In this document: positions 1,874 to 36,806 of the stretch, in pieces
Layout of the letters: each line of letters opens with the position of its first letter
Numbering within the stretch: the first letter of the stretch is position 1
IMG/VR virus record: IMGVR_UViG_2648501334_000009
Span: 1 to 41,524 of that record
Reading direction: 5' to 3' (one strand)
Source of the DNA: a virus
Lineage: Duplodnaviria > Heunggongvirae > Uroviricota > Caudoviricetes
Length of the DNA: 41,524 nt
The notes under the pieces: model-generated
Databases searched by the model: none
What the model was told of the DNA's origin: nothing
The model's input: the letters and a program-made list of their open reading frames with translations, nothing else
Translations under genes and position numbers: made by a program

Positions 1874-2070
1874 TACTGGCTGCGACATTTTTGAATAAAA
1901 GCGTCGACATTTCGGCGCTCATAACGAACTACTTTTGCACTGAAACGAATTGGTGCCAGGATAGCCCGATGACGATGCTTAATATTCCACTCACATAGCG
2001 TTTTCTGTGTAATACCTAACTTTTGGCATACTTCATCCGGGGTGAGTAAATCGTCGGGTTTCTCGCTCAT
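1870..2070 (-). CDS. AlpA/excisionase-like helix-turn-helix DNA-binding protein
   Basis: 66-aa protein with the 'LLTPDEVCQKLGITQKTLCEW' HTH pattern typical of AlpA/Xis regulators; its start overlaps the helicase stop (ATGA), and its stop overlaps the integrase stop. Confidence 0.6.
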   Translation of the reverse strand: MSEKPDDLLTPDEVCQKLGITQKTLCEWNIKHRHRAILAPIRFSAKVVRYERRNVDAFIQKCRSQY

Positions 2071-3479
2071 GCTATACCTCTCTTTTTCATGGCATCGAGC
2101 AGGATGTCCTGCACTGTTCGTTTTGAGTTGCGCCGCTCCATCACCATTTCGTCCATAGTGTCGGCAGCAATAATGTGGTGAATAAATACCGGACGATTGT
2201 GTCCGGCCTGTATCTGCCTGGTGGGGCCGATACGTTCAATAATTTGCTGATATTGCTCCAGGTCCCACCAGTGTGAGAAAAATACCAGTATATTTCCGCC
2301 GTCCTGCATGTTCAGGCCGTGGCCCGCGCTGGCTGGGTGTGCAAAGAGAACAGGAATCTTTCCGGAATTCCAGTCGCGCAGTGTCTGTGGATCCTGGTCG
2401 AGGTGACGACCGCGAGGGAATGCTTTAAGCAAGCGTTCAAGATCGTGTTTCCAGTGATAAGCAACCAGCACAGGTGCGCCAGCTGCTTCGGTCAGTATGC
2501 TGTCCAGCGCCTGTAGTTTGGTGTCATGCAGTTCTGACCAACTTCCGGTGTCGTCTGTGTATACTGCGCCACTGGCGATTTGAAGACACTTCAGTGTCTT
2601 TGCCGCGGCGTTCGGTGCTTCGATGCCTTCGCTATTCAGCTCGAGGAACATTTCCTTTTCCATTTCACGATACTGCTGACGGGCCTTCGGGGGCATATCC
2701 ACGCGGATTACGTTATGGATGGGGTCTTTGATATCGAACCAGTCGGCCGCATCCAGCGAGAGGGTCACATCGGCTAATGCTCGCTGTATTTCACCCTGTG
2801 AGTGAGCAAAAGGTTCCAGTTTAGTCCAGCTCTGTCCCGGAAACTGTATCGAGTTGAACCAGCGTGAGGTAAACGCACCGTAAGTGCGCCCGAGACGTTG
2901 CCCCTGGTCCACAAACCACGCTTGTCCCCACAAATCTACCAGGCCGTTCGGTGCTGGCGTACCGGTGAGATTTATCCAGCGCCGGACATACTTATGCGCC
3001 ACTTTGCCCAGTGCCGCAGCGCGCTTACCACCACCTCGTAGCCGGAAGGATTTTAGCCGGGTGCTTTCATCTGGAATAACAGTACCGAACGGCCATCGTT
3101 CTCCCAATTCCTCAACCAGCCAGACAAGGTTATCGTAGTTGATGGTGAACACGCTCGCGTTGCTGTTCGCCAGCGCCGTAGAGCGCGCTTTGGCGTTACC
3201 GATAATCGGCTGTACCTCAATATTACGCAGGTGCCCCCATTTAACAGCTTCATCAGGCCAGGTGCTTGCTGCAACGCGTAGCGGCGCGAGGACCAGTGCG
3301 GGGCGTGTTTCTGCCCCTGCCATAAAGAGATCTTCCAGCGTAGTGAGCGTTGCCACGGTTTTACCCATTCCCATTCCTGCCCAAATATTGCAGCGGGAAA
3401 TACCTATTTCGTGATTAATAATTAGTTCTTGGTATAACCGGGGGGTAAAAGATATCATAACAAGAGATAACCTATACAC
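2067..3479 (-). CDS. SNF2-family ATP-dependent helicase
   Basis: Walker A-like 'AGMGMGKTVA' and a DExx box 'VIPDESTRLKS'. The true start may be an internal Met (MISFTPRLYQ). Confidence 0.7.
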   Translation of the reverse strand: MYRLSLVMISFTPRLYQELIINHEIGISRCNIWAGMGMGKTVATLTTLEDLFMAGAETRPALVLAPLRVAASTWPDEAVKWGHLRNIEVQPIIGNAKARSTALANSNASVFTINYDNLVWLVEELGERWPFGTVIPDESTRLKSFRLRGGGKRAAALGKVAHKYVRRWINLTGTPAPNGLVDLWGQAWFVDQGQRLGRTYGAFTSRWFNSIQFPGQSWTKLEPFAHSQGEIQRALADVTLSLDAADWFDIKDPIHNVIRVDMPPKARQQYREMEKEMFLELNSEGIEAPNAAAKTLKCLQIASGAVYTDDTGSWSELHDTKLQALDSILTEAAGAPVLVAYHWKHDLERLLKAFPRGRHLDQDPQTLRDWNSGKIPVLFAHPASAGHGLNMQDGGNILVFFSHWWDLEQYQQIIERIGPTRQIQAGHNRPVFIHHIIAADTMDEMVMERRNSKRTVQDILLDAMKKRGIA

Positions 3480-3500
3480 ATTCTGAGATTAGGGGTTAAA

Positions 3501-4121
3501 ATGGATATTTGGGAAAAAAGTAAAATTATTATATTTTTGCTTTTCGTTATTCCTGGTTTTATAAGTATGAAAGTTTATAGTGTTATTCATCCTAATACCG
3601 CTTTTGATACTTCTAAAGCGATTGTGGAAATTGTTTCTTATAGCTGTATAAATTACGCAGTATGGTTTGCTCCTATATATTTTATAGAATCTGAGGGTGT
3701 ATATCTCAAACATCCTGTTCTTTATTGTGCTTTATACTTGGTGATTTTATTCATTAGCCCAATATTGTTAACGATATTTTTCTCTTGGATGCGAACTTGG
3801 CGTTGGTTATGTAATTATATGCCACATCCTACCGGAAGAGCTTGGGATTATTTCTTTGGGTTAAAAGTCCCCTGTTGGATGATTATTACGCTAAAAAATG
3901 GTAAAAAAATAGCAGGCAAGTTTGGGGCTAACTCATTTGCTTCCAGTGCACCAGAGCCAGAGCAAATTTATCTTGAGGAACATTGGGTTCTAAACGATGA
4001 TGGGGGATTTGAACGCCCTCGAGTTTCAACATTAGGAATATTAATTTTAGGTAACGATATAGAAAATTTAGAGTTTTTCCGTTTTGAACTACCAACATGC
4101 AATAATGGAGAAAGCAACTGA
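3501..4121 (+). CDS. Hypothetical integral membrane protein (accessory moron)
   Basis: Three N-terminal hydrophobic helices followed by a soluble C-terminal domain; very AT-rich; on the opposite strand to the flanking early operon; AGGGG ribosome-binding site. Confidence 0.55.
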   Translation: MDIWEKSKIIIFLLFVIPGFISMKVYSVIHPNTAFDTSKAIVEIVSYSCINYAVWFAPIYFIESEGVYLKHPVLYCALYLVILFISPILLTIFFSWMRTWRWLCNYMPHPTGRAWDYFFGLKVPCWMIITLKNGKKIAGKFGANSFASSAPEPEQIYLEEHWVLNDDGGFERPRVSTLGILILGNDIENLEFFRFELPTCNNGESN

Positions 4122-4264
4122 TGTCAGATACCAAAAGAAGTTATAAGGAAGATGGATATACCCCTATTGAAAAAGGGTATCAGCCTAAAAATGACTTGGC
4201 TAATAATGGTTTTCAACCTTCGAAGCAAACTTCCCAGCCAGCTCCACCACCCAAAAAACCATAA
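4121..4264 (+). CDS. Small hypothetical protein, 47 aa (below the ORF-track cutoff)
   Basis: ATG overlaps the stop of the upstream ORF (TGATG); translates to MSDTKRSYKEDGYTPIEKGYQPKNDLANNGFQPSKQTSQPAPPPKKP; same AT-rich block. Confidence 0.35.
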   Translation: MSDTKRSYKEDGYTPIEKGYQPKNDLANNGFQPSKQTSQPAPPPKKP

Positions 4265-4570
4265 CTAAGTATTGGGGGGAATAATTCCCCCCAGCTCTTT
4301 GCTATCCAGTACCACCACGGTAAAGCCCAGCTTTCGCAGACGTTCATGTGTGCGCAACTGGTCAGGTCGTGGTGGTTTGCCGGGGGATTTACATTCAACG
4401 AAAACGATGCGACCGCCGGGTAGCAGAACAATGCGATCCGGTACCGAGCGGCGACCGGGAGATACGAACTTAAAGGCAACCCCGCCAGCTTTTTTCACTT
4501 CAGCGACGAGATGCTTTTCGATAAGGCTTTCACGTTCATAGGCCATCATCCACCGCCTTACGCTTTTCAC
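4265..4570 (-). CDS. VRR-NUC domain nuclease
   Basis: PD-(D/E)xK-type core 'PDRIVLLPGGRIVFVECKSPG'; size and context typical of phage VRR-NUC proteins. Confidence 0.75.
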   Translation of the reverse strand: MKSVRRWMMAYERESLIEKHLVAEVKKAGGVAFKFVSPGRRSVPDRIVLLPGGRIVFVECKSPGKPPRPDQLRTHERLRKLGFTVVVLDSKELGGIIPPNT

Positions 4571-4757
4571 GCATGTTCTGCATCAGGCAAGAATCAGCCC
4601 GGCGCTCTCTCCAGTCCTGATTAAGTTCGTTACGTGATTCACGGTTTGCTTTGGCCCAGACCTTCGCCGCCCGGTCATACTCGCCGGACTGCTCAAGGCG
4701 CAAAGCCTCCTGTGCAGTCCGATAATAAAGCGGACTGTCCCGATATTTAAATGACAT
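4536..4757 (-). CDS. Small hypothetical phage protein
   Basis: Start chosen at the internal Met (MSFKYRDSP...) with a GAGGT ribosome-binding site 8 nt upstream; overlaps the VRR-NUC start. Confidence 0.45.
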   Translation of the reverse strand: MSFKYRDSPLYYRTAQEALRLEQSGEYDRAAKVWAKANRESRNELNQDWRERRADSCLMQNMREKRKAVDDGL

Positions 4758-4773
4758 AGGGGTTACCTCAAAT

Positions 4774-4799
4774 AAATACCCCTGCATTTGCAGGGGTAT
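4774..4799. terminator. Perfect palindromic hairpin, candidate bidirectional terminator
   Basis: AATACCCCTGCA-TT-TGCAGGGGTATT, with A/T runs on both sides; lies between the TIR-like gene stop and the next gene. Confidence 0.6.
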
Positions 4800-4822
4800 T
4801 TACTTTTTAGAAAAATGATTGA

Positions 4823-5584
4823 TTAAGATGAAGCGTTCGCTATTTGAGCTTCATTAAATGTGAAACCGGCCTGTTTAAGGCGCTGGATTAAGCGAGGTAC
4901 AGTTTCTCGAACATGATCATTAAAGTTGAGATAAAGAATACCCGCAGCATCAGAAGGCTGTTCAAGGTGTTGCTTCTGCAAGATGACCACGTTACTGCGG
5001 CCGAGTGATGATAACAACATCCCCATTTCTAGAACTACATTTTGACGAGCCCTGGGCAGGGCTGCTTCTTGACCGTCTCTTTTGGAGTATCCCACATCAT
5101 CGGGAGTGAGAAGAACAATGCCGAAACGAGTCGCTGTCTGCCCTTGACCAATTTCACGCTCCAGTTCTTCAATTATCGTAAGTCCAGTACCACCTGTATT
5201 CTGCAAAATAAAATGATCAGGTAACCCAAGCTTATGAAGAATGAGCTCAAGCTGCTCTTTTGCTGCATGGTCGTGACCGTGAACGATGAAAATCTTTTTG
5301 GCTGGCTCTTGAACCGGGGCTGGCTGAACTCGTTGAGCTGGCGCGTTACCCAAGTGTTCATTAATAATGGCTTCAACCTCTGGTTTTGCCGCTTGTGAGC
5401 CTTGAATCAAAATCGTTCCGGTGTGGTAAAGCGTTATGATGGCACCATTACTTAAACGATAACAATCATGACCGGCTTTGTTTTCTTCTCCGGTAACATC
5501 AAATCCGGATTCGACTAAAAATTGACGAAAAGTTTCGACAGGGTGTGGGTATTTGAGAGCCATTTCATTGAGATCCTGCATCAT
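4823..5584 (-). CDS. Two-domain protein: N-terminal unknown domain plus C-terminal TIR-like (PF10137/Cap12-type) domain; candidate defence effector
   Basis: C-terminal motifs 'KKIFIVHGHD', 'FGIVLLTPDD' and 'RARQNVVLEMGMLLSSLGR' match my recollection of the TIR-like family consensus, with a conserved Glu in the ExG motif; AGGAAA ribosome-binding site; AT-rich 53-bp upstream spacer. Confidence 0.55.
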   Translation of the reverse strand: MMQDLNEMALKYPHPVETFRQFLVESGFDVTGEENKAGHDCYRLSNGAIITLYHTGTILIQGSQAAKPEVEAIINEHLGNAPAQRVQPAPVQEPAKKIFIVHGHDHAAKEQLELILHKLGLPDHFILQNTGGTGLTIIEELEREIGQGQTATRFGIVLLTPDDVGYSKRDGQEAALPRARQNVVLEMGMLLSSLGRSNVVILQKQHLEQPSDAAGILYLNFNDHVRETVPRLIQRLKQAGFTFNEAQIANASS

Positions 5585-5637
5585 TATTTTCCTATAAAAT
5601 AAGCAATATTTAGCAAAGCAGCAATGACAGCGAGCAG

Positions 5638-7713
5638 CTAATCCTTACGGTAGTGGTACGCCTCAAAACCGCCAGCGTTCAGTGGGATATCGGGCGCCCA
5701 TTCGGGGTTAGTGGAGAGAAGCGCGGAAAGCACTTTATCGTTGAAATCTTCTGTGTCAGGTGCTTCGGTGATCACCTCGTCGTGTACCGTCAACACAATG
5801 CTGTAACCGGCATCTTCGATAAGCGGCATGTTTCCGGCCAGAACGTCGCGGGCGGCCGCCTGGGTGACGTTCTCCACCAGCTTTCCGCCGTAGGTTTTGA
5901 GTCGTTGCCATTTACGCGAATAAGAGTTAACACCCATATAGGTGATATTCCCTTTTTCGATAACCGGAGACGGGTAGCATACAGCGCGTCCGGATGGTAG
6001 CTGTATGCGCAGCCACGCGCCATCACGTCGGATTTTAAGATAACCGCAATACAATGTTTTTTGCGGTGTGGCGATTGCTGTGCGGACAGTGCGCTCCAGC
6101 TCGTACCAGAAATCGCAGGTCGCCGGGTGCGCCCTGCGCCACAGGCGCTTGAGCGAGTCACATGCGATGAATACACGCTCGGAAAGGCCAAAGGTCGACT
6201 TACGTTTAACCGATTCGTCGTACCAGCTTTTCGCCTCGCGGATAACATCGCGGGGAATGTTTGGCAGTGCGGCGTTCGCCAGCTCGTCGAGATCGAGACC
6301 GTAAACCAGAGCAAAAGTGATGAAAGCCGATACACCACCTCCATAACCCAGACCGAGTTCCATGACTTTACCGATCTGACGCATGTGTTTATCAACATCA
6401 TCTGGTGCAATATCGAAAGCTTTTGCATACGCCAGTTTATATAAGTCCGGACCCGTTCCGGCGTCGTACTCTCTGAATGCATTCAGTTTCCATTCTTCTC
6501 CCGCCAGCCATGCCAGCATACGGCCTTCAATGTTTGACAAGTCACTTACCACCAGTTTTTTGCCTGTTGGCGCGATAATGCAGCCACGTAACGCTGAACT
6601 GGTTAGTTCCATGATATTGTCAAACAGCAGGTCTGCACATCCGGCTTTCAGTGCTTCGATGCCTTCGTCTATTTGTTCCTGTTTTAGTGAAGGGCGGGGA
6701 AGGTTCTGGGGCTGGAATAGCCGTCCGGCCCAACGACCGGTACGTGACGCCCCGCAGAACTGTAGCGTACCGCGTAAGCGCCCGTCGTGGCTTACGCCTT
6801 TCATCAGTGCCTTGTATTTACTGGTGCTGGTAGTACTGGCTTGCAGGCGGATAGCCAGCAGTTCTTTCACGGCAGATGGTAAATCGGGGTCGGCAATACG
6901 ACGTTCCAGAGTACTGCGTTGCATGTCTGGTAGCTCCACACTGTAGGATTCAACAATGTGCTTAATCAACGCGTCCCGTTGTGTGGCTGCCTGCACTTCG
7001 CCATCAGTCATTTCCTGTGTACGCTTTGCCAGGCGCTTTTGCTCCTGGTCTACCGCTTCGATCGCAGCGCGCGCGAGTTGCATGTCCATGCAGACGCCCC
7101 GGTCGTTGATCTGCTGATCACGATGCCAGAGCGCCAGCTCTGTCCCCTGATAATTCCACTTCGGCAGACGTTTATAGACTTCGCGCATTGCCTCGATATC
7201 CAGTCCGGCGTAAGCAACAAAGCGCCGCCATTCTTCCGGGTGGGTTTTGCTGGTGGCACGGCGCAGTTTGCTGTTTTTCGGGCGGGGCTTACAGAACAGC
7301 TGGATCAGCGCTTTACCTTCTTTGTCCTTCGCTTTGTCTTGCGGGACGCCGAGTATTTCGCAGAGTTCCCCCAGAGACCCCGGGAGACCATGCGCCAGCG
7401 CCTGTACCATTGTGTCTCGCCAGCGTTTGGCACTACCTGCAACAACACATTGGGGAGTGTGCAGCAATGCATGGCGCAACATGGTGCGATCGAAATGGCT
7501 GTTGTGTGCATATATTAGTACGCTCTCATCGCTGAGAGCTGTCAGTAGTCGTGTCGGCAAGTTATAGTCTGTGGTTAAATCGTGTACGCTGACGGGGTCT
7601 TCGTCGATTGCCCATGCGAATAACATGATTTCGACTCCTTCTGCATAGACATGGGTGCCGTTTTTTATTGGGATTTCGCTGAAAGTTTCGAGGTCTAACC
7701 AAAGTTTTTGCAT
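5638..7713 (-). CDS. Family A DNA polymerase with N-terminal 3'-5' exonuclease domain
   Basis: Exo I motif 'LDLETFS' near the N-terminus; motif C '[10 protein letters not shown]' and '[13 protein letters not shown]' near the C-terminus. Start placed at the internal Met (MQKLW); the tracked ORF extends to 7755. Confidence 0.8.
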
Positions 7714-7745
7714 CAAGTAAGGACCCGTTGGATTTAATAAATAAA

Positions 7746-7768
7746 AAGCCGCCAAAATGGCGGCTTTT
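7746..7768. terminator. Hairpin terminator downstream of the SIR2 gene
   Basis: AAAGCCGCC-AAAAT-GGCGGCTTT flanked by A and T runs. Confidence 0.55.
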
Positions 7769-7789
7769 TATAACCGAAGTTAAGAATGC

Positions 7790-9292
7790 TTAATATGATA
7801 AATAATCATACAGGCATAAAAGTCGCCTGTATTGGGTATCAATTTTATGCCCTGGTTTTGTTAAATAATCTCGTAGTTGTTTCAATGAAATAGTATCGTT
7901 TAGTACGCAATACATAATCGTGTTAGCAACTTTATACTCTTTCGTTTCTTTTAGTATTTCATCAATAGACACAGCCTCACTCTTACATGTTTTAATTCGA
8001 GAAAGGTTACCAATGATTTTATCTAGCTGCCGTTTTCTGTATGTCTCGGTATTTTCTAGTTCAGGGCAGATAGAACTAAAAGCGTATATTGGAAAGTGTT
8101 CGCTATTAGCTATGGTTTGCTTATTCAGTAATGCGATAAGCTGAGAGTTTGCTTCGTCAACTATTTTAAAATAGTTCTGTATCATTTCAGATTTTGTTTG
8201 ATAAACATATTGTACGGTTCTTTCTGAACCAACAGCAATGACCATTTCATCATTGCGAAGTTCATCTAAATTTTCTGTAATTTTAACCTTTATCTCACCA
8301 CCACTTTTGATGGTACTCCAAACTTTTTGAACCTTTCTTATGTCCATTGCGGATACTGGCAAAACTAGTCCAGAGATGGCATCATATACAGCTTTGTAAT
8401 TGTTTGTTTTTATTTTGTTTATTCTTATGATAGACATGCCTTCTATATCTATGTCATGCTCCGTAATTTCAGTTGACATGCTGTCTTTTTCGTATTCAAC
8501 CAAAAGGAAATTATCTTTTATCCTTTTTGCAAGTTCGGTATTTAAGTCAACGTATGAGAATATGGTTTTTAATAAGTACTTAATGTTTTTATCGCTAATA
8601 CTATACCCTATAAATATGATAGGGTTGTGTATGAATATTGAGAGTAATTGAGCGCGAATTAACTCATATTTATTGTCGAAGTTTGCGTAGTCTTCACCTG
8701 TGATAATTATGTTGTTAGGATCACTAACACAGCCATGTATTTTGTAAACTGAACCGTATGGGTTACTTAAAAGAATGTTGTTACCAATCAGTGGGTTAAA
8801 TTCGAAGATATTCTCTACGAGTTGGTCGTAGTTTGTTGTAATGATGGAGCCTATGTTTTTTCTTGTTTTTATTAAGCTGTTTATTTCCTCCATCATTGAC
8901 TCTTTTATCTTTAGGTCTTTAAGTATTGAAGTTAAATAAATTTTGAATCGACTTAGTTTTTTTCCTTTTTTCATGTGCTCATAGAAAACATCATTGATGT
9001 CTTTGAACTTACCGTTACGATCTTCTGCCAGCTTTTTATTAAAAATATCTTCAAGTTTTGTAGCTAAGATATCATATCGATAGTCGTCACCTTCTAGGCT
9101 TTCAGCTTTCAAATCGTAGTAAAACTCAGCATTACCGGTTAGTTCCATTGCGACACTCAAAAGAAGACCATCCCAGCTAAATGAGTTTTCTAGATACCGT
9201 AGGCTAAATCCTGTTCCAATGAATAGAACAGGGTGGTTTTTATAGTGACTTACAAACTCTTGGATTTCCATACCGATTCTCAAAGTTGACAC
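7790..9292 (-). CDS. SIR2-domain protein (sirtuin-like NAD-binding fold) with an uncharacterised C-terminal domain; candidate anti-phage defence protein
   Basis: Motifs 'PVLFIGTGFS' (GxGxS loop), 'ITTNYDQLVE', 'VYKIHGCVSDP', 'IFIGYSISDKNIKYLL' align with the Thoeris ThsA SIR2 domain as I recall it; strongly AT-rich; GTG start with an AGAGG ribosome-binding site; own terminator. Confidence 0.7.
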   Translation of the reverse strand: MSTLRIGMEIQEFVSHYKNHPVLFIGTGFSLRYLENSFSWDGLLLSVAMELTGNAEFYYDLKAESLEGDDYRYDILATKLEDIFNKKLAEDRNGKFKDINDVFYEHMKKGKKLSRFKIYLTSILKDLKIKESMMEEINSLIKTRKNIGSIITTNYDQLVENIFEFNPLIGNNILLSNPYGSVYKIHGCVSDPNNIIITGEDYANFDNKYELIRAQLLSIFIHNPIIFIGYSISDKNIKYLLKTIFSYVDLNTELAKRIKDNFLLVEYEKDSMSTEITEHDIDIEGMSIIRINKIKTNNYKAVYDAISGLVLPVSAMDIRKVQKVWSTIKSGGEIKVKITENLDELRNDEMVIAVGSERTVQYVYQTKSEMIQNYFKIVDEANSQLIALLNKQTIANSEHFPIYAFSSICPELENTETYRKRQLDKIIGNLSRIKTCKSEAVSIDEILKETKEYKVANTIMYCVLNDTISLKQLRDYLTKPGHKIDTQYRRLLCLYDYLSY

Positions 9293-9382
9293 GTAATACC
9301 TCTATAAAAACAAATAGCCGTAAAAATTCCAATAGCTTTTTGGATCTCGCCCGGCGTGTAACCGGGCGTCTATGAAGAAGGG

Positions 9383-9931
9383 TTAAATCAGTGCTTCAGC
9401 ATCAGCACCTTCGCTGATATCGTCGAAATCGTCAGCGCTTGCCACTCCGCCGCCAGCGAATGCATCGCCGTCTCGCAGGAACTGGACTCCGCCGAGTGAG
9501 GCATTAATGCGTTTACCGAAATTATTGTCCTGTGCCCAGATATCGATAACGGCGTTTACATAGCACCCTGCATAGGGACGTCCATCAGCCTGAATTAGTG
9601 GCGAACGATCGCGATCAAGAACAGCTGGGCGCGCTTTGTTAGCAGCGTTCAGGAAGAAATTGCCGGGAAAGCCTTCATACTCTGCTTTTTCATCACCATC
9701 ATGCAGGCACAGATTGAGTTTTTTCTCCAGCTGGTTATAAATGGACTCCCACTTCTCCCCCCATTTTTCCTTCGCTACCTGCTTCATAGCTTTACGGATT
9801 TCTTCCAGTTGTGGGTGTTTGGGAGACATTAAAAATACTGCGGAGAAACGCGGATCGCCTTCGCCGTTTACAGTTTTAGCTTCAAACAGAGACGGGAAGG
9901 CCAGACGAACATTGTTCAGCTTCAGTTTCAT
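9383..9931 (-). CDS. DUF2815-like phage protein, putative ssDNA-binding protein
   Basis: N-terminus 'MKLKLNNVRLAFPSLFE' and acidic C-terminal tail; sits between the DUF2800-like nuclease and the polymerase as in related phage replication modules. Confidence 0.55.
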   Translation of the reverse strand: MKLKLNNVRLAFPSLFEAKTVNGEGDPRFSAVFLMSPKHPQLEEIRKAMKQVAKEKWGEKWESIYNQLEKKLNLCLHDGDEKAEYEGFPGNFFLNAANKARPAVLDRDRSPLIQADGRPYAGCYVNAVIDIWAQDNNFGKRINASLGGVQFLRDGDAFAGGGVASADDFDDISEGADAEALI

Positions 9932-9946
9932 GGGGATTTCCTTAAA

Positions 9947-11248
9947 TCAGATGAGGTCTGCGGTTAGCGTATCGTCGGATACGTCGTCGAAATCATTTAC
10001 AGGGTTGATATTGAGTGCGGGGCGTGGGTCTGACTCGGGAACGATGGTGGGTTTACCATCAGCTCGTGTTATCAGTGCCTCGACTTTTGACCAACGGCGC
10101 GGACTGGCCTTTTTGATAAGTTTTTCGGCTTTTGTGGGACTAATAAGTTTAAAGTCGAATACTTCTTCAGTTTTGTACCTGAACTGGTCCTTCAGAAGTG
10201 CGCGAGCTGCCTCTTCGTCACTCCAGGCCCGGTTACCTTGTTTTCCTGTTACCAGTTTAAACCCCGGTACCGGATGTCCGGCATTGAGTTCATTGTGAAC
10301 CCGGTCCCGTACTGCCTTTAGCCAGGATTCAATAAAGTCGGCCTGGCTATAGATCTCTGCAAGCTGCTCAATGGTTAACAGAGGTACACGTGCGCTGGCA
10401 TTGGTGATTATTTCGCTGACAGGCTTTGTCAGATCTTCAAAATCGCTGGCCGCTGTTTGTAAATGCTGCATTTTCTGGGCAGTGCAAATAGCTTTTGCTT
10501 TACAGAAGCGGCACTGTTTTTCTCCAGGTATGAAGTTTTCCAGTGGTAGTGTCTCAATGCCTTCGCATTCAGCAATATTGAGAACAAGGATCGCACTGGT
10601 TGCGGCCTCCAGCGCCCGTTTACCGAAAGACTGAAGTTCCTGTACGGTTAACGACCATTCTGAAACGTGGTTGAGCCTTGGTTGGTGAATAAATAATCTT
10701 ACAGTTTCAAAGTCATACAGCATGCTGAATTGTTCAAGCGCACCCAGAGCATACAGTTGTAGTTGCTCATTTTGTTCTGCATCAATGCGGACGCCTTTGC
10801 CATATTTCAGGTCGTGGATTTGTAATTCGTTACCAGCGATGATTATGCCGTCGGCAGTTCCGAAAGATTCTTCCACACCCGTTATATGTGAGAAATCAAC
10901 ACGTTGTTCAACCAATAGTTCATTATTCTTTGCAAGAGTCCAGACCGTATCAACATACCGGCCGACGGCTTCGACCATTTCATCATCCACCTGTGGGCCA
11001 GATGTATCATCAGGATTTTCGCGAAGGGGGTATGAGCCTAGAAACATAGAAACATTGCATCCGGCGTAGTGTTCCGGGTGGCTTTGCCTGTTTCGTAGAA
11101 CTTTTTCAGCAAGCGCGTGCGCTGCAGTGCCCTCGATTGCAAAAGTTGTTTCTTTATCCGGTTGTGTGGCCTCCAGCGCCAGACTTCCTGGGCAGCGCAT
11201 CCATCGATGCGCTGATGATGGAGAAAGTTGTGCATGAACGTCTGGCAT
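9947..11248 (-). CDS. DUF2800-like PD-(D/E)xK nuclease (Cas4-like)
   Basis: N-terminus '[15 protein letters not shown]' and a C-terminal cysteine cluster '[10 protein letters not shown]'. Confidence 0.6.
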
Positions 11249-27289: not shown

Positions 27290-27827
27290 CACCAGCACAG
27301 AGCGCGGATGGCTGATACCAACCAGTGGCGATCCGGATTATGACGAAGCGCTCGACAGGCTGTTAAGCCAGTGGATGCGTAACGTTTCCGGTCTGTCTGC
27401 CGGGATGGTTCGCCCGCGCTGGCAGAAAGAGCAGCCGCCACTGCTACCGGTTGAAACGAACTGGTGTGCGTTTGGGGTTATCGGATGGTCAGGTGATGAC
27501 AGTCCGGCATTCACCAGACAGACCGATGATGGCTCTCAGCTCTGGCGGCATGAAACGATTGAGTGTATGGCTTCGTTTTATGGTCCGGCGGGGATGGTGT
27601 ATGCGTCCCGGTTTCGTGACGGTATATCTGTACCGCAGAACAACGCAGCACTGAATGCGCTGGGGCTGTCTCTTGGCGATTACACAGGTCTGACTCCCTT
27701 CCCTGAACTTATTAATCAGCAATGGGTCCGTCGCTACGATATGACGGTGCGTCTGCGCCGGAAGGTTGTGCGCGAGTACGGTATTAAATCGCTGGTGGAA
27801 GCACCAGTCATCTTTTTCGGAGATTAA
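27264..27827 (+). CDS. Hypothetical phage structural protein
   Basis: ORF with ambiguous start (ATG at 27264 or TTG at 27279); precedes the sheath gene. Confidence 0.4.
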   Translation: MGEFRLSNNTSTERGWLIPTSGDPDYDEALDRLLSQWMRNVSGLSAGMVRPRWQKEQPPLLPVETNWCAFGVIGWSGDDSPAFTRQTDDGSQLWRHETIECMASFYGPAGMVYASRFRDGISVPQNNAALNALGLSLGDYTGLTPFPELINQQWVRRYDMTVRLRRKVVREYGIKSLVEAPVIFFGD

Positions 27828-27830
27828 GCT

Positions 27831-28976
27831 ATGGCACAGGGCTTGCCTGTATCAAACGTTGTTAATGTTGATGTGATCATGTCGCCGCGTGCAGCATCAG
27901 GGCGAAATTTTGGTGCATTACTCATTCTCGGCCCGTCCACAATCATTCCGGTAAGTGAGCGCATTCGTCGTTATTCTGCCGCGGAAGATATTGGAAAAGA
28001 TTTTGGCGTGGAATCACCAGAATATAAAGCTGCGCAGGTGTTTTTCTCACAATCACCGAAACCTCAGGAGGTTTTTGTTGGTCGTTGGGTGAAAACGAAG
28101 GGAGACAGCGAACAGGCCACGCCTGAGACGCTGGAGCAGGCTGTGAATGCCATGCTTGATTATACTTCATGGTATGGGCTGGGGATTGCAGACGATGCAG
28201 ATATTCCGGATGCAGACTGGCTGAAAGTGGCTGCGGCGATCGAATCCTCTTCTGTAAGCCGTATTCTGGCGATTACGACAAGCGATGAGAAATGCCTGCA
28301 GACTGCATCCAGCGATGATTTGGCATCAAAACTGAAAACCGCCGGATATTCACGCAGTTTTATTCAGTATTCATCGGGTAATAAATACGCTGCGTTATCT
28401 GCATTTGGCCGGGCATTCACGGTTAATTTCAATGGCAGTAATACCGCGATTACGCTCAAGTTTAAGCAGGAGCCGGGTGTCGGGTATGAAACACTGACAG
28501 TCAGCCAGGCATCGGCACTTGATGCAAAAAACTGCAATGTGTTCGTGTACTACCAGAATGATACAGCTATCCTCCAGCAGGGAGTGATGGCTAACGGCGA
28601 TTTCTTTGATGAACGCCACGGCCTGGACTGGTTACAGAATTATGTGCAGACCAACCTCTATAACCTGCTTTATACCAGCACCACGAAGGTTCCCCAGACT
28701 GAAGCCGGTATTACCCGACTGTTATCAAATGTTGAAAAATCACTGGATCAGGCCGTTCAGAATGGACTGATTGCTCCGGGCGTATGGAACGGGGGCGACC
28801 TTGGTCAGTTGTCATCAGGTGACACACTGCCCAAAGGTTATTACGTATACGCCCAGCCGCTGGATGAACAGGCACAATCAGAACGTGAAGCCCGTAAGGC
28901 TCCGGTGATTCAGGCTGCAATAAAACTTGCAGGCGCGGTTCATTACGCTGACGTACAGATTAACGTTGTTCGCTAA
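27831..28976 (+). CDS. Tail sheath protein (DUF3383-like)
   Basis: 381 aa immediately upstream of a tube-like protein, chaperone pair and tape measure. Confidence 0.6.
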
Positions 28977-28986
28977 GGGGAAGTGA

Positions 28987-29427
28987 ATGTCTACCTATTC
29001 TTTTATGGATGTCACTGCGACGCTGACCGGGCCGACCGGTTCGATTGACCTCGGGTACGGTTCTGCAAGTTCTGAAGAGGGGATTGTGGTTGCGATGGGC
29101 GGTCCTAAAAACACCATGACCATCGGTTCTGATGGCGAAGTGATGCACAGTCTCCATGCAGATAAAAGCGGGACGATTACCGTTAACCTTCTGAAGACAT
29201 CACCGACAAATAAAAAATTGTCGCTGGCGTATAACGCACAGAGCCAGTCTTCTGCCACATGGGGGAATAACGTTATTGTGATCCGAAACAAGGTCAGCGG
29301 CGACATCATCACGGCACGTAGTGTTGCGTTCCAGAAACAACCGGATAATGCCAACGCTAAAACCGGTAATACGATGCCGTGGGTGTTTGACTGCGGCAAG
29401 ATTGACCAGGTTCTCGGGGAGTTTTAA
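28987..29427 (+). CDS. Tail tube protein (DUF3277-like)
   Basis: 146 aa, beta-rich, in the position between sheath and chaperones. Confidence 0.55.
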   Translation: MSTYSFMDVTATLTGPTGSIDLGYGSASSEEGIVVAMGGPKNTMTIGSDGEVMHSLHADKSGTITVNLLKTSPTNKKLSLAYNAQSQSSATWGNNVIVIRNKVSGDIITARSVAFQKQPDNANAKTGNTMPWVFDCGKIDQVLGEF

Positions 29428-29430
29428 TAC

Positions 29431-29883
29431 ATGGAATTCGAAATCAAAGGCGTGAAATATCGCGCGGCAAAACTCAGCGTTTTTGACCAGCTGAAAGTGA
29501 CCCGCAAACTTCTGCCGGTACTGGCGGGAATGATGTCAGATTTCGGGAGCATTCGCTCCCGTTTGCCTGCTGACGGCAAAATCGAAACCGTGAAATTCGA
29601 GCAGTTAAAACCGGTGTTTGAAACCATGCTCCCGCGTATCGCTGAGGAACTGTCTTCCCTGACCGAAGATGACACCGAAGCGATTATTCATCCCTGTCTT
29701 GCGGTGGTGTCGCGGCGTCATATGGACGGATGGGTGCCGGTATTTACCAAGGGCGAACTGATGTTTGATGATATTGACCTGCTGGTCATGCTGCAGCTGG
29801 TGGCGCGGGTGGTCGCCGATTCGCTGGGAAATTTTTTGCCTACACCCCTTACCAGCACGACGCAGAGCCTGCAACAGGGCTGA
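29431..29883 (+). CDS. Tail assembly chaperone (G-like)
   Basis: 150 aa immediately upstream of the tape measure gene; contains a slippery heptamer near its 3' end. Confidence 0.6.
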   Translation: MEFEIKGVKYRAAKLSVFDQLKVTRKLLPVLAGMMSDFGSIRSRLPADGKIETVKFEQLKPVFETMLPRIAEELSSLTEDDTEAIIHPCLAVVSRRHMDGWVPVFTKGELMFDDIDLLVMLQLVARVVADSLGNFLPTPLTSTTQSLQQG

Positions 29884-30071
29884 CGTTTAACAGCCTGCCG
29901 GACGGGCTGTCCTACCTTCTCAATCCGGTTGACGCCGGGTTAATTCCTTATACAGCACTTAAAGATGGCTCTGTCGATTTGTACGACATTGCTCTCTTGA
30001 ATGACCATCTGGCGGTAAAAGCGGATAACCAGCGGCGCATTGAGAAATGGAGAGAGGATAATGAACGCTGA
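29832..30071 (+). other. Programmed -1 frameshift site and GT-like extension of the tail assembly chaperone
   Basis: Slippery heptamer T_TTT_TTG at 29832..29838 in the X_XXY_YYZ register; the -1 frame stays open for about 78 codons to the TGA at 30069..30071. Confidence 0.55.
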
Positions 30072-32049
30072 AACTATTAAAGATTTCCTCGTCTCGCTTG
30101 GCTTCAGTGTGGATGATGCAGGAGCGAAAAAGTTCGGTTCTGTCCTCGCCGGTACAACTGCAAATGTCATCAAAATGGGGCTGGCCGTCGAAGGAACTGC
30201 ACTGTCCGTGGTGGCCTTCACGGCTAAGATCGCCTCCGGTCTGGATAATCTTTACTGGGCGTCACAGCGCACCGGCGCGACGGTCCATGGAATTCAGTCT
30301 ATTGGCTATGCGGTTTCGCAGGTTGGCGGCAGTGCAGACGCTGCGCGCTCTTCTCTGGAAAGCCTCTCCCGGTTTATTCGTAACAATCCCGGTGCAGAGG
30401 GATTTCTGAATCGCCTGGGGGTACAGACACGGGATGCCAGCGGTAACATGCGTAACATGGCCTCTATTTTTACAGGTGTAGGCCAGAAGCTCAGCGGCAT
30501 GCCGTATTACCGGGCTAACCAGTATGCGCAGATGCTGGGCATTGACGAAAATACCCTTATGGCGATGCGCCGGGGTGTGGGTGGCTTCTCCGGGCAGTAC
30601 AGCGCAATGGCGAAAGCTATCGGCTTCAATGCTGACGAGGCGGCCAGAAGCTCCAACAAATTTATGACCTCCCTGCGCGAGTTCGGCGCGATGGCAGGCA
30701 TGGCCCGTGACAAAATCGGCTCTAATCTTGCTGGTGGTCTGGCGGGTTCGCTGGACACACTGCGCCGCCACATCCTCGATAACTTCCCGCGCATCGAGCA
30801 GACCCTGACGAAAGCCATAAAAGGCATTCTGGCGCTCGGAGACATCATCGGGCGGCTGTTCTTCAGGCTAATTGAGGGAACATCCAGCCTTATCACCTGG
30901 TGGCAATCGCTGGATAAGCAAACGCGGGAGCTCATCTCGCTGTTTGGCGCGCTGACGATTGCGCTGCGCATTCTGAACAGTACGTTCTGGATGTCGCCGA
31001 TTGGCCTCATTACCGCGCTGGCGGCGGGGATTGCCCTTCTGTGGGAGGACTATCAGACCTGGAAGGAAGGCGGCGACAGCCTGATTGACTGGGGCAAGTG
31101 GAAGCCGGAGGTCGATGCCGCGCTGAAGATGGTTCGTGACCTGAAAGGGTCTGTTAATGAACTGGTGAAAGCGCTGGCGAAACTGCTCAATATTGACCCC
31201 AAATCATGGTCCCTGAAGTGGGATTTCAGCAACTTCATCGACCAGATGGGCGAATTCAGCAAAATGCTGAACATGATCGCCGACCTGCTCAACGCTATCA
31301 AAGATGGCCGCTGGGCTGATGCCGTCAGCATCGGCAAACAGATACTTAATCAGGGCAGCGAAAATCCGTCAGCGATGCCGATGGTTACAGACAGCGCTAA
31401 CAGTACTGCCGACTGGATTAAAGAGCACTGGGGATTCGATCCCCGCAGTGTGGGCCGGACGGTACGCGGCTGGTTTGGTGATGATGAGCCGGAACAATAT
31501 GCACAGGCTACGAAACGAGGAGAACGGAATAACAATCCGGGAAACCTTAATTTTGCTGGTCAGGCAGGGGCTTCTCTTGAACGCCCGGGCGGGCGATTTG
31601 CCAGATTTGAAACTGCTTTTGATGGATTACGGGCTCTTGCTCGTCAGTTAATGCTGTACGCCGGACGGGGAATAAACAGTGTGGAGAAAATTATCTCTAC
31701 CTGGGCACCTGCGTCTGATAATAACAACACAACTGCGTATATCAGGGCTGTATCGCAACGACTGGGAGTGGATCCCCGGGCTGCCCTGAATATGAGCGAT
31801 CCGCAAACCATGTCAGCATTGATGAGCAGCATTATCCAGCATGAAAATGGAAGAAATATCTATTCTCGAGAGCTGATTAATAAGGCTGCCGTGGCGGGAA
31901 TTAGTGGCAAAATGACAGAGGTTAACCAGCAAAATACTTACCACATTTACGGTGGCGGAGATCCGCACGCTGTCGGTAATGAGGTTGCACGTCGGCAACA
32001 GTCTGCAAATGCTCAGGTCATGCGAAGTAATCAGGTGAGGGTGGGTTAG
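30061..32049 (+). CDS. Tail tape measure protein
   Basis: About 660 aa, helix-rich with hydrophobic segments, directly after the chaperone pair; ATG at 30061 with a GGAGAGAGG ribosome-binding site. Confidence 0.7.
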   Translation: MNAETIKDFLVSLGFSVDDAGAKKFGSVLAGTTANVIKMGLAVEGTALSVVAFTAKIASGLDNLYWASQRTGATVHGIQSIGYAVSQVGGSADAARSSLESLSRFIRNNPGAEGFLNRLGVQTRDASGNMRNMASIFTGVGQKLSGMPYYRANQYAQMLGIDENTLMAMRRGVGGFSGQYSAMAKAIGFNADEAARSSNKFMTSLREFGAMAGMARDKIGSNLAGGLAGSLDTLRRHILDNFPRIEQTLTKAIKGILALGDIIGRLFFRLIEGTSSLITWWQSLDKQTRELISLFGALTIALRILNSTFWMSPIGLITALAAGIALLWEDYQTWKEGGDSLIDWGKWKPEVDAALKMVRDLKGSVNELVKALAKLLNIDPKSWSLKWDFSNFIDQMGEFSKMLNMIADLLNAIKDGRWADAVSIGKQILNQGSENPSAMPMVTDSANSTADWIKEHWGFDPRSVGRTVRGWFGDDEPEQYAQATKRGERNNNPGNLNFAGQAGASLERPGGRFARFETAFDGLRALARQLMLYAGRGINSVEKIISTWAPASDNNNTTAYIRAVSQRLGVDPRAALNMSDPQTMSALMSSIIQHENGRNIYSRELINKAAVAGISGKMTEVNQQNTYHIYGGGDPHAVGNEVARRQQSANAQVMRSNQVRVG

Positions 32050-35700: not shown

Positions 35701-36453
35701 ATGGCATTATCTGACCAGACCCGCAGCGGCGACCTTGCCGAAACATTCAAATCAGAGCGGGACACAACAAAGAACCAGATCCGTGTTGCTTTGCCTGGCA
35801 TCGTCCAGTCATTCGATCCTGACGCGGTGACAGCGGTTGTGCAGCCTGCGATCCGTTCGGTTGAAACTGACAACGACGGCAACCGCGTTACCAAAAATTA
35901 CCCGCTGTTGGTGGATGTGCCGGTGATATTTCCGCGCGGCGGCGGCTGCACGTTAACTTTCCCGGTGGAAGCCGGCGATGAATGCCTGGTGATTTTTGCC
36001 GATCGCTGCATCGATTTCTGGTGGCAGAACGGCGGGATACAGGAGCCGGTTGATGACAGAATGCATGATTTATCGGATGCGTTTTGTATTGTCGGTCCCC
36101 AGTCGCAGGCAAGGAAGATTAGCGGTATTAATACCAGTGCCACACAGTTGCGTAGTGACGATGGCAGCACCTATTTTGAGCTTAATCCTGATACCGGGAA
36201 AATTAAAATTGTCGCTCCGGGTGGTCTTGATGTGGTTACCCCTCTGGCTGATTTTTCTGAGAAAGTAACCATTCATGGCCTGTTAACCTGGTTGGGGGGC
36301 ATGGTGGGGTCTGTGGTTTCTGGTGTGGCTTCAAAAATCACTGGTGCTGTTGAGTTTTTGGGGAGCGTGAAGGCTAACGGCAAGCCAATCGATGATACGC
36401 ACACTCATGGTGGTGTTCAGCGCGGCGGAAGCAATACTGATGGGGTAAACTGA
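35701..36453 (+). CDS. Baseplate spike/assembly protein V-like
   Basis: ATG at 35701 with GGAG upstream; Gly-rich beta protein in the position before W-like and J-like genes. Confidence 0.55.
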   Translation: MALSDQTRSGDLAETFKSERDTTKNQIRVALPGIVQSFDPDAVTAVVQPAIRSVETDNDGNRVTKNYPLLVDVPVIFPRGGGCTLTFPVEAGDECLVIFADRCIDFWWQNGGIQEPVDDRMHDLSDAFCIVGPQSQARKISGINTSATQLRSDDGSTYFELNPDTGKIKIVAPGGLDVVTPLADFSEKVTIHGLLTWLGGMVGSVVSGVASKITGAVEFLGSVKANGKPIDDTHTHGGVQRGGSNTDGVN

Positions 36454-36806
36454 TGCGATACAGACGTGAAGACGCCGATGGCGATTACACCTTTGGCAGC
36501 GGTGATGACACCTGGCTGATTAACTCGCCTGAGGCCGTAGCACAGGCTGTGAAAACGCGATTCGAATTGTGGTATGGGCAATGGTTTCTCGACACCACCG
36601 AAGGGACTCCGTGGATCCAGTCTGTGCTCGGTAAGCAGAAGCCGGAAACCTACAACCTGGCGATCCGTAAGCGCATCCTCGAAACGCGGGGCGTTAAATC
36701 AATCCTCTCTTTCAATACGACAGTGGATACCACGACCCGACGTGTCATGTTTTCCGCTGAAATCGACACTCTTTATGGAATAACGACTGTTACATCGGAG
36801 GCGTAA
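36453..36806 (+). CDS. Baseplate wedge protein (GPW/gp25-like)
   Basis: 117 aa, translationally coupled upstream of the J-like gene. Confidence 0.55.
   Translation: MRYRREDADGDYTFGSGDDTWLINSPEAVAQAVKTRFELWYGQWFLDTTEGTPWIQSVLGKQKPETYNLAIRKRILETRGVKSILSFNTTVDTTTRRVMFSAEIDTLYGITTVTSEA

Follow-up and report, generated by a model that had tools for sequence, protein, structure and literature searches.

Here we describe a SIR2 gene and a TIR gene that lie on either side of a family-A DNA polymerase gene in a 41,524-nucleotide (nt) stretch of viral DNA (IMG/VR record IMGVR_UViG_2648501334_000009; this whole stretch is referred to below as the window). We conclude that the two genes are very probably independent single-gene cargo cassettes (morons), each likely encoding an autonomous abortive-infection NADase. 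The cassettes would have been acquired separately, each into one of two slots that lie on either side of the polymerase gene and are prone to recombination. The prophages concerned form a family of temperate, myovirus-type elements of enterobacteria that are integrated beside yfhL. We propose that in each protein a sensor part holds the catalytic part off until a superinfecting phage is detected, and that the activated protein, presumably in an oligomeric form, would then deplete NAD+, abort the infection and protect both the lysogen population and the prophage. In the SIR2 protein the parts would be an N-terminal NADase domain with the Asn/His pair of ThsA and DSR2 and a C-terminal domain of ∼190 amino acids (aa), and in the TIR protein a TBP-lobe-like N-terminal domain and a C-terminal TIR NADase domain of the Cap12/PycTIR type. 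An earlier note on this DNA had offered two accounts of the genes, either two defence morons that are independent of each other and share a hotspot in the replication module or a split, non-canonical signalling pair of the Thoeris kind. Full-length matches to single-gene PADLOC families, discrete replaceable cassettes and free reassortment of the slots uphold the first account, with its putative defence role, and the second did not survive the comparisons described below.

Two cargo slots flank the polymerase gene

The window is identical to positions 1315075-1356598 of the Escherichia coli TUM1880 chromosome (NZ_CP135706.1) and contains a temperate myovirus-type prophage integrated adjoining yfhL. 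On its minus strand a DUF2800 nuclease, a single-stranded-DNA-binding protein (SSB), SIR2, the family-A polymerase, TIR, an ANR regulator and a VRR-NUC nuclease follow one another in this order, then an SNF2 helicase, and the RefSeq annotation of the chromosome has the same SIR2, polymerase and TIR genes. As the earlier note had read from the letters, SIR2 and TIR flank the polymerase gene without being adjacent to each other, and all three minus-strand open reading frames (ORFs) match Pfam families far beyond chance. The SIR2 gene (7790..9271, with an alternative GTG start at 9292; 493 aa; RefSeq WP_001683173.1) matches PF13289 SIR2_2 with an E value of 1.7e-22, the polymerase gene (5638-7713 with the RefSeq start, ORF 5638-7755; WP_024234093.1) matches PF00476 DNA_pol_A with E 4e-14, and the TIR gene (4823..5584; 253 aa; WP_021563492.1, annotated as 'TIR domain-containing protein') matches PF10137 CAP12-PCTIR_TIR with E 5.8e-31. 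SIR2 and TIR are 2 kb apart on one strand with the 2.1-kb polymerase gene between them.

Both genes sit in replaceable cassettes with sharp edges. The SIR2 cassette, between the SSB and polymerase genes, spans 7696..9348 on the minus strand, homology with the related loci L004 and L005 stopping at 7695/7696 and 9348/9349. The TIR cassette, between the polymerase and ANR genes, spans 4767..5638 on the same strand, blastn homology with locus L003 stopping at 4766/4767 and 5638/5639. The G+C content of the SIR2 region is 32.5%, compared with 45-53% in its surroundings, which fits the expectation for foreign cargo.

That each gene is individually terminated, as had been claimed, was borne out by hairpins with T-runs just past both stop codons. 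The intrinsic terminator 3' of the SIR2 stop (7735..7770, minus strand, its hairpin at ∼7742-7770; -20.1 kcal/mol, z -6.06) lies within the cassette and upstream of the polymerase ATG, 20 nt past SIR2 and ∼25 nt before the polymerase start. It reads AAAAAGCCGCCA-UUU-UGGCGGCUUUUU followed by a U-run and is symmetric (A-run, stem, U-run); the SSB/polymerase slot may be an operon boundary, since many relatives carry an opposite-strand gene there. The hairpin terminator 3' of the TIR stop (4770..4805, minus strand) has a 16-bp stem (-24.6 kcal/mol, z -6.55), lies within its own cassette and was also reported on the plus strand at 4773-4802 by the scan. No RNA structure was found in the 53 nt from the polymerase stop to the TIR start. 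At the other end of the SIR2 gene, ∼70 nt 5' of the ATG are recognizably kept between the window (9272-9348, minus strand), a copy in a P2 hotspot (L009, 7483-7560) and a copy in a defence island (L010, 7206-7280). This conservation across contexts indicates that the SIR2 gene moves with its own leader, in which -35/-10-like hexamers stand 20-21 nt apart. The slot edge beyond the leader is marked by a backbone hairpin 3' of the SSB gene (9348..9368, minus strand; -16.1 kcal/mol, z -2.7) in a segment common to all relatives.

We scanned 5,426 complete E. coli genomes, finding the polymerase module in 159. The two slots were then typed in ∼125 related loci drawn both from E. coli and from IMG/VR, 124 loci for one slot and 128 for the other. 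The polymerase gene is a conserved backbone gene, 74-100% identical in more than 150 related prophages, and in prophages otherwise 94-99% identical both cassettes are replaced by unrelated cargo. The SIR2 slot then holds a reverse-strand gene for a 209-aa membrane protein, an Nmad5 gene with a hypothetical gene, or an antirepressor gene, and the TIR slot a 204-bp hypothetical gene (L003) or nothing. Altogether the SSB/polymerase slot showed 32 insert types and the polymerase/ANR slot 23, each in addition to an empty state. Both slots were readable in 118 loci, which gave 89 unique slot-pair sequences and 60 type combinations, and the partners of SIR2 cassette types in the other slot comprised 2 TIR alleles and 8 states without TIR. 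So many types and combinations are the signature of a cargo hotspot, and both slots show what defines a moron hotspot, namely a fixed position between conserved genes with many unrelated, interchangeable inserts. The commonest cargo of the SIR2 slot, outnumbering SIR2 itself, is the reverse-strand gene for a predicted membrane protein of 199-209 aa (L004 5849-6478, L005 6013-6642, L130 and others), for which neither Pfam nor PADLOC gave a match.

Prophage defence hotspots are a known phenomenon, and comparable ones have been described in P2 and P4 prophages, where anti-phage genes likewise replace one another at set sites bounded by conserved phage genes (Rousset et al. 2022, PMC9122126). SIR2 is among the domains named in a figure legend for the P2 hotspot (PMC9122126), and we found a 73% nucleotide-identical SIR2 copy alone between the replication endonuclease and portal genes of a P2 hotspot. 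The prophages studied here belong to another phage family, and their two slots lie within the replication module, one on each side of the polymerase gene. Unlike the anti-phage cargo of P2 and P4, the contents of these slots also include non-defence items such as Nmad5, an HNH endonuclease, antirepressors and membrane proteins of unknown function.

SIR2 and TIR genes occur independently of one another

According to the second account in the earlier note, SIR2 and TIR would form a split Thoeris-like pair. Spelled out, this would mean that the TIR protein detects infection and produces a signal derived from NAD, which then activates SIR2 in trans. Both domains come from NAD-using immune families and lie 2 kb apart on one strand, as such a pair might. 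We compared this with the distribution of the two genes. An IMG/VR sample anchored on the polymerase gene gave 73 loci in which both slots could be seen; 52 of them carried neither gene, 19 TIR only, 1 SIR2 only and 1 both, the last being the window's own prophage. Targeted IMG/VR scans showed the same pattern: 38 of 39 SIR2 loci lacked TIR and 42 of 43 TIR loci lacked SIR2, the shared contig again being the window's prophage. TIR was present in 3/12 SIR2 haplotypes (25%) and in 19/71 SIR2-free loci of the anchored sample (27%), so that either gene occurs without the other at about the chance rate, the outcome that the earlier note had itself named as speaking against a pair. The association was likewise absent at the haplotype level (odds ratio 0.5, Fisher p 0.52) and at the level of cargo types (TIR in 2/10 versus 19/50, odds ratio 0.4). 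Solo genes are common among unique haplotypes, in which 9/12 SIR2 genes stand without TIR and 30/33 TIR genes without SIR2.

Individual alleles and distant relatives give the same picture. One SIR2 allele (≥99.5% nt identity) accompanies TIR allele 1 in the window and TIR allele 2 in strain Rb-50, and stands without TIR in strain 21KM1392, L093 and L106. In strain 23CRST009 an IS1 element interrupts a SIR2 gene that is otherwise 99.9% identical (NZ_AP045766.1 1201036-1203315, equivalent to window 7790-9292), whereas the TIR gene is intact and 100% identical. Among E. coli genomes 74 have SIR2 relatives (66-73% nt identity) and 47 have TIR; both families occurred anywhere in the genome in 4 of 60 SIR2-bearing genomes among the matches listed. 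In E. coli, SIR2 relatives stand alone in a P2 hotspot, in a defence island adjoining type I restriction genes and in an integrative mobilizable island, which supports a defence role for SIR2. A common Klebsiella prophage carries a 71%-identical SIR2 in the same SSB/polymerase slot without TIR; its exact protein occurs in 668 indexed assembly-collection blocks, with the lone-SIR2 arrangement in 5/5 among the matches listed. In a Firmicutes island a 56%-identical SIR2 copy stands alone, adjoining a reverse-transcriptase system. Conversely, no SIR2 of this family was found within 10 kb of any of 80 TIR loci from 80 species of many phyla, and neighbour clustering, which for TIR covered these 80 species, found no conserved partner gene beyond the prophage backbone for either family.

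The SIR2 protein

In PADLOC-DB the SIR2 and TIR families are already catalogued as single-gene phage-defence candidates, PDC-S25 and PDC-S35, respectively. The SIR2 protein gives a full-length match to the PDC-S25 profile PDLC04968 (residues 4-500 on positions 4-514 of 517; E 4.1e-158). Its SIR2 NADase domain (∼aa 1-300; 8372..9271, minus strand) contains the Rossmann GxG (here GTG), the catalytic Asn (TTNYD) and the His (K-x-HG) of defensive SIR2 NADases, and the motifs FIGTGFS, ITTNYD (N147) and YKIHG (H179) are invariant across 17 homologues that are 55-83% identical and come from Proteobacteria and Firmicutes. By profile alignment these motifs align with those of DSR2 (ITTNYD / KVHG) and ThsA, and in Foldseek searches the structural model matches the SIR2 domains of ThsA, DSR2, SIR2-HerA and SPARSA. 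The remaining ∼aa 301-493 (7793..8371, minus strand) form a mostly helical region that is kept across phyla and is a putative sensor or regulatory domain. Neither single-sequence nor profile searches gave a Pfam or PDB match for these C-terminal ∼190 aa, whose model is partly of low confidence. SLOG, STALD and Macro receptor domains were undetected in the protein, a profile of the C-terminal 250 aa matched no known domain, and no NCBIfam family was matched.

DSR1 and DSR2, the defence-associated sirtuins, are single-gene SIR2 NADases activated by phage proteins. The SIR2 protein of the window resembles them in being encoded by a single gene and in joining an N-terminal SIR2 NADase domain to a C-terminal non-catalytic region that presumably senses. 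Its best PDB profile match is DSR2, confined to residues 139-235, in which ITTNYD and K-x-HG are aligned, and the PADLOC Dsr1 match is marginal (E 3.7e-5, residues 149-278, SIR2 domain only). DSR1 and DSR2 are ∼1000 aa long compared with 493 aa here, and the C-terminal regions have no detectable similarity.

The TIR protein

The TIR protein gives a full-length match to the PDC-S35 profile PDLC05003 (residues 11-253 on positions 3-245 of 245; E 1.7e-109). The earlier note had assigned its TIR domain to the Cap12 type rather than the ThsB type, and this was correct, the protein matching PF10137 as given above and showing no match in Pfam to the ThsB-type family PF08937. In the Cap12/PycTIR-type domain (aa 97-253; 4826..5296, minus strand) the invariant RARQNVVLEMG motif holds the predicted catalytic residue E186; NVVLEMG aligns with NVVFEFG and NVHLEFG of Cap12 and PycTIR, and E186 does not vary among 34 family members. 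We judge both proteins likely to be effectors because their catalytic motifs align with those of DSR2 and of Cap12/PycTIR and their folds agree. The PADLOC profiles for ThsA, Dsr1, the Cap12-type effector and PycTIR match far more weakly than the PDC profiles and cover catalytic domains only, and the NCBIfam Cap12 models score 32 bits on the TIR protein against a cut-off of 450 bits.

Cap12 (the TIR-STING protein of CBASS, the cyclic oligonucleotide-based antiphage signalling system) and PycTIR (of Pycsar) are NAD+-degrading effectors that are switched on via an attached sensor domain. The TIR protein belongs to the same PF10137 subfamily, shares their NVV-x-E-x-G motif and finds in them its best structural and profile matches. 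The sensors of Cap12 and PycTIR are a STING, SAVED or cyclic-nucleotide (cNMP)-binding domain, whereas the TIR protein has an 80-aa TBP-lobe-like N-terminal domain. Cap12 and PycTIR also have an associated cyclase gene; RefSeq annotates none in the window, and no neighbour is conserved across the 80 species.

Two TIR alleles occur in E. coli, of which allele 2 is the commoner (37 genomes versus 10 with allele 1). Their proteins are 72% identical and differ almost only in the N-terminal domain and linker (window 5339-5584 versus L002 3593-3838), the TIR domain being almost unchanged. This suggests that the sensor part has diversified or been swapped, as would be expected of a sensor under diversifying pressure.

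The domain comparisons also bear on the split pair. In type I Thoeris a TIR protein again accompanies a SIR2 NADase, and the SIR2 protein of the window aligns with ThsA, with the catalytic Asn/His conserved. In ThsA, however, the SIR2 domain is fused to a SLOG/STALD domain that binds glycocyclic ADP-ribose (gcADPR), and none is detectable here; ThsA matches are confined to the SIR2 part (positions 85-270 of 478 in the PADLOC profile, residues ∼101-276 in PDB). The Thoeris TIR protein is of the ThsB type (PF08937 / TIR_2) and that of the window of the PF10137 effector type. Furthermore, thsA and thsB are adjacent and co-inherited, whereas here the polymerase gene and a strong terminator separate SIR2 from the downstream TIR gene and the two co-occur at the chance level. 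The more specific proposal of the earlier note, a TIR-like producer or sensor acting on a SIR2 effector, failed for the same reasons, as SIR2 lacks a detectable SLOG/STALD domain and the TIR protein, whose catalytic Glu motif is intact, is of an NADase-effector subtype. We therefore reject the split pair, which is extremely improbable given the distribution of the genes, the lack of a detectable receptor domain, the TIR subtype and the transcriptional separation.

The N-terminal domain of the TIR protein and RNase HI

The putative sensor of the TIR protein (∼aa 1-82; 5339..5584, minus strand) is predicted to adopt a single TBP-lobe-like beta-alpha-beta4-alpha fold, with a model confidence (pLDDT) above 90 for aa 10-78. 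It weakly matches PF11858, the N-terminal domain of RNase HIII (E 0.004), and PDB entries 3vn5 and 5hy3; 6/19 family members match PF15935 RnlA_toxin (best E 9e-5). An N-x-Y-x-TG-x-x-x-QG signature in this domain is common to the N-terminal domains of RNase HIII and RnlA/LsoA. The TIR N-terminal domain thus shares a signature and a predicted fold with these proteins, at a sequence similarity below family thresholds and with no superposition obtained, and the effector is a HEPN RNase or an RNase H in their case and a TIR domain here.

The N-terminal domains of RnlA/LsoA and RNase HIII are single TBP-lobe domains (PMC7221094, PMC5308261). That of RNase HIII contacts the RNA:DNA duplex via a conserved Tyr at the signature position (PMC7221094), and the NRD domain of RnlA binds RNase HI, which RnlA requires for activation (PMC5308261). 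We found an RNase HI gene abutting or overlapping the TIR 3' end on the same strand in 13/80 species-level TIR loci (L028, L043, L057, L065, L068, L070, L073, L075, L078, L079, L082, L084 and L087), TIR lying at ∼10001-10750 and the RNase HI ORF starting at ∼10700. These loci come from Chloroflexota (including Dehalococcoidia and Caldilineaceae), Acidobacteriota (Vicinamibacterales) and Verrucomicrobiota and fall in at least 2 or 3 places on a rough neighbour-joining tree of TIR proteins. The binding of RNase HI by RnlA and the abutting RNase HI genes suggest, purely as a hypothesis, that the TIR N-terminal domain acts together with RNase HI or recognizes RNA:DNA hybrids. Our best guess for the trigger of the TIR sensor would accordingly be an RNA:DNA-hybrid replication intermediate or RNase HI. 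That PDC-S35 is a new kind of stand-alone TIR NADase, whose TBP-lobe N-terminal domain senses RNA:DNA hybrids or acts via RNase HI, is a tentative idea that we consider rather doubtful at present.

Points against independent defence cassettes

Several observations weigh against our reading of SIR2 and TIR as independent defence cassettes. The first comes from the complete E. coli genomes, in which TIR is present in 4/5 SIR2-bearing prophages versus 43/154, with two TIR alleles represented (raw Fisher p 0.027, odds ratio ∼10). These counts are a further point in favour of the split pair, and they leave some room for a weak, non-obligate association between the genes. They would also be expected if the two genes had independent mechanisms and were co-selected, two NADases with different sensors widening phage exclusion or backing each other up against phage inhibitors. 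The occurrence of SIR2 with two TIR alleles (window and Rb-50) is consistent with such co-selection, and synergy between co-resident defence systems has been reported in the literature. However, three of the four E. coli genomes with both genes carry the same prophage, so that the signal comes from two lineages and the collapsed p is 0.20; the odds ratios by haplotype and cargo type lie below 1, and the two genes occur together in just one prophage of the anchored IMG/VR sample, that of the window. We thus consider co-selection unlikely.

The other observations concern function. The confidence of the SIR2 model is moderate (pLDDT 72). Our literature search found no functional study of PDC-S25 or PDC-S35; two papers mention either name, of which the one listed has PDC-S25 once, in a phage-receptor study. 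PHROGs list both families as of unknown function. Promoter-like sites showed no excess over shuffled sequence, and with no terminator between polymerase and TIR, the TIR gene could be a replication-phase gene. One or both genes might then be expressed with the replication genes and serve the phage lytic programme, for example by taking part in NAD+/ADP-ribose metabolism, by modifying proteins of the host or the phage, or through counter-defence. Both genes are indeed co-oriented with the replication operon, TIR follows the polymerase gene by 53 nt and keeps this position in prophages whose polymerase is only 74-77% identical, and the defence roles of the two families are themselves putative. 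Against this, the absence of both genes from 52/73 relatives argues that they are not needed for replication, SIR2 relatives reside in places typical of defence genes (a P2 hotspot, beside type I restriction genes and beside a reverse-transcriptase system), and for both catalytic domains the nearest relatives that have been characterized act as NADases in abortive infection. We regard a non-defence role as very improbable, and retain the reading of two independent cassettes with probable anti-phage function.

Neighbouring genes and other variable regions of the prophage

The replication and early genes around the two slots all lie on the minus strand: the DUF2800 nuclease at 9947-11248, the Enc34-type SSB at 9383-9931, the ANR regulator at 4536-4757, the VRR-NUC nuclease at 4265-4546 and, further downstream, the SNF2 helicase at 2067-3458. 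We also noted a third variable slot (3501-4264), bounded by the SNF2 helicase and VRR-NUC genes. Its occupant in the window is a DUF6338 gene on the opposite (plus) strand (3501-4121), the protein of which has no PADLOC match, in a stretch of lower G+C content (42.5% over 3001-4000); in relatives the position is taken by a gene for a DNA cytosine methyltransferase or a Rha regulator, or by other hypothetical genes.

In the structural (head-tail) region an IS4-like ISVsa5 transposase gene (28263-29471) splits a DUF3383 family gene into two pseudogene halves (27686-28252 and 29576-30169), and virion production by the TUM1880 prophage is probably defective while its cargo genes are still intact. 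A YafO-family type II toxin gene (36283-36699) and a hypothetical ORF upstream of it (35709-36281) lie inside the baseplate/tail gene block and look like another moron-like insertion.

Implications

Removal of the split-Thoeris reading shows that the proximity of a SIR2 and a TIR gene is insufficient to call a signalling pair. The analysis defines small, clean cassettes for two widespread candidate families, with predicted catalytic residues (SIR2 N147/H179 and TIR E186), and each comes with its native leader and terminator, ready to clone. It also documents a prophage family outside P2 and P4 with two replication-module slots that swap candidate NADase defence genes and other morons, and searching such slots could bring new systems to light. 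If the lead connecting the TIR N-terminal domain with RNase HI holds, it would provide a testable trigger for a stand-alone TIR effector. NAD+ depletion would then be tied to a phage replication intermediate, and the partner, whose gene stands immediately downstream of TIR in Chloroflexota, Acidobacteriota and Verrucomicrobiota, would in E. coli come from the host rnhA.

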